A DNA stretch of 8,294 nucleotides from a virus. Lineage: Duplodnaviria > Heunggongvirae > Uroviricota > Caudoviricetes. The first letter of the stretch is position 1. Every line of letters begins with the position of its first letter. Of the stretch, positions 1,480-1,677 are shown one piece after another. The stretch is taken from the IMG/VR virus record IMGVR_UViG_2537561605_000008. One strand, given 5' to 3'. Made by a program: the position numbers and the translations under genes. The notes below the pieces were generated by a model. That model was given only the letters and a program-made list of their open reading frames with translations. It was not told where the DNA came from and did not search any database.

Positions 1480-1677
1480 TGGCCTGCCACGGGGCGGGAG
1501 CGTCGCGGAAAAAGGCTAGTTTTTGCATTTTTATCGGCCACCATCATCTTTGCATCTTATTGATTATTAATGGTTATTTGTTTTTTGTATGTCGAGTTGA
1601 GTGTTTTTTGTTCGACATCGAACGCGTTTTCTTAAAGTTGTTCGCACGATGCATGTTTAAAGCTCTCCGGAGGAAAT
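1480..1677. other. cos site: cosN-like nicking region (about 1489-1508) plus AT-rich cosB-like region up to the terminase start
   Basis: ACGGGGCGGGAGCGTCGCGG at 1489-1508 matches lambda cosN ACGGGGCGGCGACCTCGCGG (from memory) at 15 of 20 positions, all five differences in the central block. The predicted 12-nt cohesive end gggcgggagcgt (1492-1503) lies 186 bp upstream of the small-terminase ATG, against about 190 bp in lambda. An AT-rich tract with TTGTTCG repeats follows. Confidence 0.55.

Follow-up and report, generated by a model that had tools for sequence, protein, structure and literature searches.

The cos region and terminase genes of prophage Sp3/CP-933K

The window, that is, the whole stretch of 8,294 bp analysed here, matches several E. 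coli O157:H7 chromosomes at 100% identity. It lies between ybhC and ybhB, in the lambda attachment region, in a locus that carries the nleB2-nleC-nleH1-nleD cargo and that is annotated in the Sakai genome as 'prophage Sp3, lambda-like phage' (the Sakai cos region is one base off the window, with an identical cos core). The genes run in the order endolysin, Rz, a non-coding stretch holding cos, a DUF1441 small terminase (TerS), a gpA-family large terminase (TerL), a W-like gene, a lambda-family portal and a ClpP-protease/major-capsid fusion. This last gene (5934-7961), in which a ClpP-like prohead protease is joined to the major capsid protein, is built as in the Gifsy-2/mEp213 group, where such a fusion is ordinary.

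The TerS gene (1678..2169, plus strand) encodes a DUF1441 protein of 163 residues (Pfam PF07278, E 4.6e-44; PHROG 141 'terminase small subunit', E 2.7e-77), which is 42% identical to the TerS of phage cdtI. A BLASTP comparison with lambda Nu1 gave no alignment, and a structure search returned no solved structure related to the small terminase. The TerL gene (2169..4271, plus strand) encodes a gpA-family protein of 700 residues (Pfam GpA_ATPase, E 9e-72; GpA_nuclease, E 1.9e-85), the enzyme expected to nick cosN. TerL is 25% identical to lambda gpA and 87% identical to cdtI TerL, the latter likeness being mosaic: from residue ~380 to the C-terminus the two are nearly identical, while the N-terminal part is more diverged. 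The divergence of the N-terminal part has its counterpart in that of the small terminase (42% identity), and the pattern fits a module whose nuclease end is tied to cosN and whose N-terminal end is tied to TerS. Judged by these similarities, the small terminase is a member of DUF1441/PHROG 141 and no homologue of Nu1, and the module would be lambda-like in its working and outside the Nu1 lineage.

Upstream of these genes, the 20-mer ACGGGGCGGGAGCGTCGCGG occupies positions 1489-1508 of the plus strand and bears lambda-type flanks, as an earlier note on this DNA had reported from the letters alone. We delimit cosN as the 22-bp region centred on the cohesive end (1487..1508, plus strand), with CCACG as left flank and CGCGG as right flank. 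In NC_001416 the lambda junction reads ...CAGGTTACG|GGGCGGCGACCT|CGCGGGTTTTCGC, which agrees with the lambda cosN given in the earlier note. The pattern ACGGGGCGGNNNNNTCGCGG has a single mismatch-free match in the window. Allowing up to two mismatches, shuffled sequences contained 0.03 matches on average, with at least one match in 6 of 200 shuffles; set against the exact match at 1489-1508, this expectation led us to reject chance similarity.

Both lambda-type flanks (ACG before bp 1 and CGCGG after bp 12) stand at exactly the lambda spacing. As in lambda, CG pairs flank both predicted nicks (C1490-G1491 before bp 1, C1504-G1505 after bp 12), and symmetry-related base pairs match at 6 of 11 positions in cosN here compared to 5 of 11 in lambda. 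We infer nicks at 1491/1492 on the top strand and at 1503/1504 on the bottom strand by homology with the experimentally defined lambda ends, which predicts a 12-nt 5' cohesive end, GGGCGGGAGCGT (1492..1503, plus strand). Eight of its 12 bases are identical to lambda, including all six of the left half GGGCGG; bp 7, 8, 9 and 11 differ, and bp 1-6, 10 and 12 are the same. The core, GAGCG against CGACC in lambda, is therefore diverged as first described, but at four of the five positions and not at all five, the fourth being C in both. The spacing to the terminase genes also agrees with the first description: base 1492 lies 186 bp before the TerS ATG at 1678, close to the 190 bp of lambda, where Nu1 starts at bp 191.

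Anatomy of the site and deposited genome ends

We aligned the region with lambda, PhiR40_1, cdtI, Tritos, mEp460, VT1-Sakai, CP-1639, mEp213 and a Klebsiella phage. The left part of the alignment holds, in order, the heptamer GGGTCC(T), CCGGTG, a spacer, ACG|GGGCGG and a variable hexamer. CGCGG(A/G) comes next, together with a run of purines and GCTAGTTTTT, and then a block that varies (~bp 40-65). The right part holds an A/T-rich tract with T(A/G)TTGAT as its conserved core, and an inverted repeat around a T-run. The cosQ-equivalent heptamer in the window, GGCTCCT (1463..1469, plus strand), matches the family and lambda consensus GGGTCCT at 6 of 7 positions; from its end to the predicted top-strand nick there are 22 nt, compared to 23 nt in lambda and Gifsy-1. 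The conserved right flank CGCGGAAAAAGGCTAGTTTTT (1504..1524, plus strand) aligns with lambda CGCGGGTTTTCGCTATTTATG and is unchanged in all three TerS/cosB types described below. Identity to cdtI is 96% in the core (-30 to +37), against 51% and 58% in the DNA on its two sides. Because the core is so much better kept than its diverged mosaic flanks, the comparison points to selection on the site itself.

To the right of this core lies DNA resembling cosB in its arrangement. The block ATCGGCCACCATCATCTTTGCATC (1533..1556, plus strand; ~bp 42-65) is type-specific, the three cosB types diverging here, and stands at the position of lambda R3 (bp 50-65), which makes it a candidate primary TerS binding site. 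The position of R3 is known in both lambda and N15 (PMC9026076). On the minus strand, the IHF-consensus-like site AATCAATAAGATG (1553..1565) matches WATCAANNNNTTR at 12 of 13 positions and is followed by an A/T-rich tract; it may be the positional analogue of lambda I1, in a window where the IHF consensus scan as such was not significant (2 matches against 5.7 expected). Nine of ten aligned relatives retain the TTGAT core, VT1-Sakai having TTGTT, and lambda is unalignable there. An inverted repeat read directly from the sequence, TGTCGA (1590-1595) and TCGACA (1612-1617), encloses a T-run (1590..1617), and its putative function is suggested by a position analogous to that of lambda R2 and R1. 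Its arms are 8 bp long (ATGTCGAA and TTCGACAT) in relatives, Sakai Sp3 among them. In the window, an A-to-G change at 1596 turns the arm ATGTCGAA into ATGTCGAG; Sakai Sp3 and all 18 IMG/VR loci of the same cosB type among the matches listed have A there. An automated repeat search of 1400-1700 returned no inverted repeat at the thresholds used and one weak direct repeat, and a promoter scan around the site gave no match. A terminator-like hairpin at 1609-1624 probably belongs to cosB.

A megablast search of window 1300-1700 against phage records bears directly on the predicted end. The first base of the cdtI (AB285204, 2007) and Tritos (OV696610) records aligns exactly with query position 193, or window 1492; both begin GGGCGGGAGCGTCGCGGAAAAAGGCTAGTTTTT and both end ...CCTGCCACG, that is, with the sequence up to window 1491. 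Joining the record ends reproduces window 1483-1524 in cdtI and Tritos alike, and 1472-1524 in cdtI. Thus, the 12-nt end proposed in the earlier note is, to the base, the first 12 nt of two deposited genomes. These deposited termini may themselves have been placed by analogy with lambda; how the genome ends were set is not described in the Tritos paper. A literature search for the 12-mer gggcgggagcgt matched solely an unrelated mammalian promoter paper. None of the IMG/VR contigs examined ends at the site, most of them being prophage predictions from isolate genomes, and the records of the PhiR40_1 group, deposited in prophage orientation, are uninformative on termini.

Two more distant phages bear on the polarity of the ends. 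Cr-LKS3 is reported with 5'-extended cohesive ends that begin GGGC, are 9 nt long and have lambda-like flanking bases (PMC9303873), and its TerS is of the DUF1441 type, 37% identical to that of the window. The record of Hafnia phage yong2 (MZ516527) begins CGCGGGAAACGG and ends ...GAGGGGGCAGCGACA, a boundary that falls at the predicted bottom-strand nick, the CGCGGG start coming directly after the 12-nt block. Both observations speak for 5' extensions in this terminase lineage. The yong2 cohesive end, GGGGCAGCGACA, differs from that of the window in its left half too. Another record, LR595868 (mEp460_4F5), opens 5 nt ahead of the predicted nick and has a cosN 3 nt shorter than that of mEp460 (GGGCGGGAGCGCGG compared to GGGCGGGAGCGGCGCGG); this is possibly an assembly artefact at the physical ends.

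Core variation and packaging specificity

The relatives of the site share its parts in different combinations. Closest are PhiR40_1, PhiR47_1 and PhiR55_1 (PV340560 and related records), which are 97.8% identical to the window over 1300-1700, with an identical TerS (100%) and the same cosN and cosB type; they differ in a cosQ of GGGTCCT and in an A at the position of window 1596. Phages cdtI and Tritos have the same cosN, 12-nt end and 33-bp right flank, and are 94-96% identical from -30 to +37. The cdtI TerL (87%) and DUF1441 TerS add to this likeness, yet with a TerS only 42% identical and a cosB 58% identical from ~bp 38, cdtI belongs to another cosB/TerS type, and both phages have the consensus cosQ GGGTCCT where the window has GGCTCCT. 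Tritos, which is prophage 3 of E. coli LF82, forms plaques (PMC9928086), while the prophage in the window is defective.

With lambda, the site shares the architecture and order of the subsites, ACG|GGGCGG and T|CGCGG at a 12-nt spacing of the presumed nicks, partial two-fold symmetry, a gpA-family TerL and, nearly, the distance to the TerS start. By contrast, lambda differs at bp 7, 8, 9 and 11, in the cosQ-to-nick distance, in an unrelated cosB sequence, in a Nu1 TerS that has no detectable similarity to the DUF1441 protein, and in a TerL at only 25% identity.

The earlier note had called for a comparison with the cos sites of lambdoid phages. The cohesive ends of Gifsy-1 (GGGCGGCAGCGT), Fels-1 (GGGCGGCAGCGG), mEp460 (GGGCGGGAGCGG) and mEp213/LLS (GGGCGGCGCGCT) vary only in bp 7-12. 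Gifsy-1, with a cosQ of GGGTCCT, departs from the window end only at bp 7, but its small terminase is of the Nu1 type, and its gpA and head genes resemble those of phage 21. By contrast, mEp213/LLS and Fels-1 have the window's TerS family (44-63% identical), cosQ, cosN left half, flanks and TCATCATCA-type cosB motifs, with different right halves (CGCGCT in mEp213/LLS, CAGCGG in Fels-1). The LLS record annotates a 12-nt 5' cohesive site at the homologous position, an end that its authors inferred and did not measure. In Gifsy-2 (NC_010393, ~17990-18050), the conserved flanks ACG and CGCGGG are separated by 14 nt (GGTGGCTTCGGGCT), and a clear GGGTCCT is missing; on this comparison its cosN looks far more diverged than the rest.

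A dedicated survey of cosN variation by Vahanian et al. in 2017 is said to have found variation in bp 7-12 to be common. Feiss et al. (2015, PMC4669245) define lambda-like phages by such cohesive ends and describe differences in bp 7-12 as common among them: N15 departs from lambda at two positions (bp 9 and 12), Gifsy-1 at three (bp 8, 9 and 11). They find cosQ highly conserved, and likewise the CG pairs on the outer side of each nick. In the same work, packaging specificity resides in the TerS-cosB interaction, and a mismatch of two bases between cohesive ends costs about fourfold in yield (PMC4669245).

We scanned IMG/VR for GGGCGGGAGCGTCGCGGAAAAAGG, which comprises the identical cosN and a 12-bp right flank, and found it in at least 120 contigs. 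Among the matches listed, this one cosN is followed by three TerS/cosB types: TerS proteins beginning MDRELKNL... (the mEp460 type) at 59 loci, MDHELKNL... (the type of the window) at 17 loci including the window, and MELLMSNVSG... (the cdtI type) at 30 loci. In most loci among these matches, 184-186 bp separate bp 1 from the start of TerS. Between the types, the most frequent sequences stay identical to ~bp 33, and the cosB DNA diverges from ~bp 34.

Could the diverged core nevertheless set packaging specificity, as had been suggested when the site was first described? On this reading the core itself would be the determinant, TerL cutting only this variant of cosN. The C-terminal part of TerL, nuclease included, is nearly identical in the window and in cdtI, which share cosN; at 25% identity to lambda gpA, co-adaptation of enzyme and site is conceivable; and the spacing from cosQ to the nick is 22 nt instead of 23 nt. 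These observations are outweighed by others. [quoted passage not shown] The AGCGT right half recurs in Gifsy-1 beside a Nu1-type TerS and a phage-21-like gpA. Because one and the same cosN sequence precedes three TerS/cosB types, a distinct packaging specificity of the core is unsupported, and we consider it improbable. The difference at 4 of 12 bases would instead impede annealing with lambda ends, affecting the joining of ends and not recognition.

It is likewise unlikely, if a shade less so, that the site is a true cosN homologue nicked at places unlike those of lambda, so that the overhang would be something other than GGGCGGGAGCGT, for instance 9-10 or 14 nt long. Overhang length is indeed variable in the wider family with DUF1441 TerS, 9 nt being reported for Cr-LKS3 and 14 nt separating the conserved ACG and CGCGG flanks in Gifsy-2. 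In the window, however, both flanks keep the exact lambda spacing, and two deposited genomes (cdtI and Tritos) start at bp 1, a third record (yong2) begins with CGCGGG after a 12-nt block, and LLS is annotated with a 12-nt 5' end. More remote still is the explanation that the conservation reflects a small overlapping protein gene and no DNA site at all. The open reading frames 1214-1519 and 1299-1688 do span cosQ, cosN and cosB, part of the former matches PHROG 17397 (function unknown; E 1.9e-15), and several phage records annotate hypothetical proteins over the site. Yet the frames have no Pfam match, the RefSeq annotation of O157 genomes leaves window 1003-1678 free of genes, the ends of deposited linear genomes fall within the frame, and the conserved block runs past its stop codon and is common to lambda, where no gene spans cos. 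Given the missing Pfam match, the conservation beyond the stop codon and the genome ends inside the frame, we rejected the coding explanation; the simplest account of PHROG 17397 is that it collects automatic ORF calls across conserved cos DNA.

We conclude, at a probability of roughly 0.88, that positions 1489-1508 are the cosN of a lambda-type cos belonging to a packaging module with DUF1441 TerS and gpA-type TerL (the cdtI/mEp460/Fels-1 type) in the defective prophage Sp3/CP-933K. What we have established is the sequence homology, the genomic context, the agreement with the ends of deposited genomes and, as described next, the damaged state of the prophage.

State of this copy, mode of action and distribution

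Sp3 lacks repressor and replication genes, its integrase, recombination genes and portal are disrupted, and in tests for circularisation, replication and packaging it gave a negative result each time (Asadulghani et al. 2009, PMC2669165). Since Sp3 is neither circularised nor replicated nor packaged, the mapping of its ends by induction of this copy, as proposed in the earlier note, cannot work. The window and its surroundings agree with these defects. The integrase is frameshifted and bet is partial, and the portal gene (4408-5989) is split into pieces of 374 and 111 residues by an extra T near 5505 (T6, compared to T5 in relatives), where relatives keep one open frame of at least 533 codons. 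In this strain, an ISEc8 lies behind the capsid gene, and J is interrupted by an internal stop. The window ends (~8003-8294) in this ISEc8, an IS66-family element; Sakai Sp3 is without the insertion, and similarity to it stops at 8122. RefSeq labels a 40-codon stump at 8003-8122 'recombinase RecA, partial', which looks like a mis-annotation.

The cos region carries a substitution of its own. GGGTCCT stands at the cosQ offset in 118 of the 121 IMG/VR loci with identical cosN among the matches listed; GGCTCCT, the result of a G-to-C change at base 1465, occurs in only three, all of the lineage of the window, and two of these three also carry a frameshifted portal sequence. Sakai Sp3 has the same cosQ variant. 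Wieczorek and Feiss reportedly found in 2001 that in the cosQ sequence GGGTCCT every position matters. The 7-bp site is highly conserved and required for the termination of packaging (PMC4669245). Because cosQ is required in this way and is substituted here, this copy of cos is probably impaired, with putative loss of function through the cosQ change. It lies in the defective Sp3/CP-933K and is most likely an inactive or decaying relic.

In an active relative, the site may be expected to work as follows. The small terminase would bind the cosB-like DNA at ~1525-1677, where the DUF1441 TerS should, by homology with lambda, contact the type-specific DNA at ~bp 42-65 and repeats further right, its binding probably aided by an IHF-assisted bend, possibly at 1553-1565. 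TerS would thereby position the TerL endonuclease for a top-strand nick at 1491/1492 and a bottom-strand nick at 1503/1504, leaving the 12-nt 5' overhang GGGCGGGAGCGT. Packaging would then run rightward, by way of the terminase and head genes, and end at the next cosQ-cosN. On this scheme, variation in the core would alter which DNA ends anneal with each other and not how the terminase recognises its DNA. A further thought, which we regard as a long shot, is that in Sp3, as a cosQ G3C mutant whose cosN, cosB and terminase operon may otherwise be intact, cos could still be nicked and start rightward packaging in situ without proper termination, given late genes expressed or a matching terminase from a co-resident prophage, and that, more broadly, right-half variants could form end-annealing compatibility groups among lambdoid prophages that share a cell.

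The site is widespread in E. coli. A 61-nt cosQ-cosN query matched 2,057 of 5,426 complete E. coli genomes (~38%), at up to 7 places per genome, with 311 records at an identity of at least 99%. Among representatives taken as one genome per species, the exact 21-mer was confined to E. coli, E. ruysiae and two metagenome bins (Veillonella parvula and Bacillota), the latter being probably mis-binned Escherichia phage contigs. Both the sequence of the site and this kind of core variation are already known and very common, and the importance of the finding is small beyond correct annotation. For that purpose, the position of cos fixes the natural left genome end of this prophage family and explains the spurious automatic ORF calls across the site. 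The natural substitution in cosQ, beside the other defects of Sp3, agrees with the published failure of this prophage to package, and the element as a whole marks the packaging module carried by ~38% of complete E. coli genomes.
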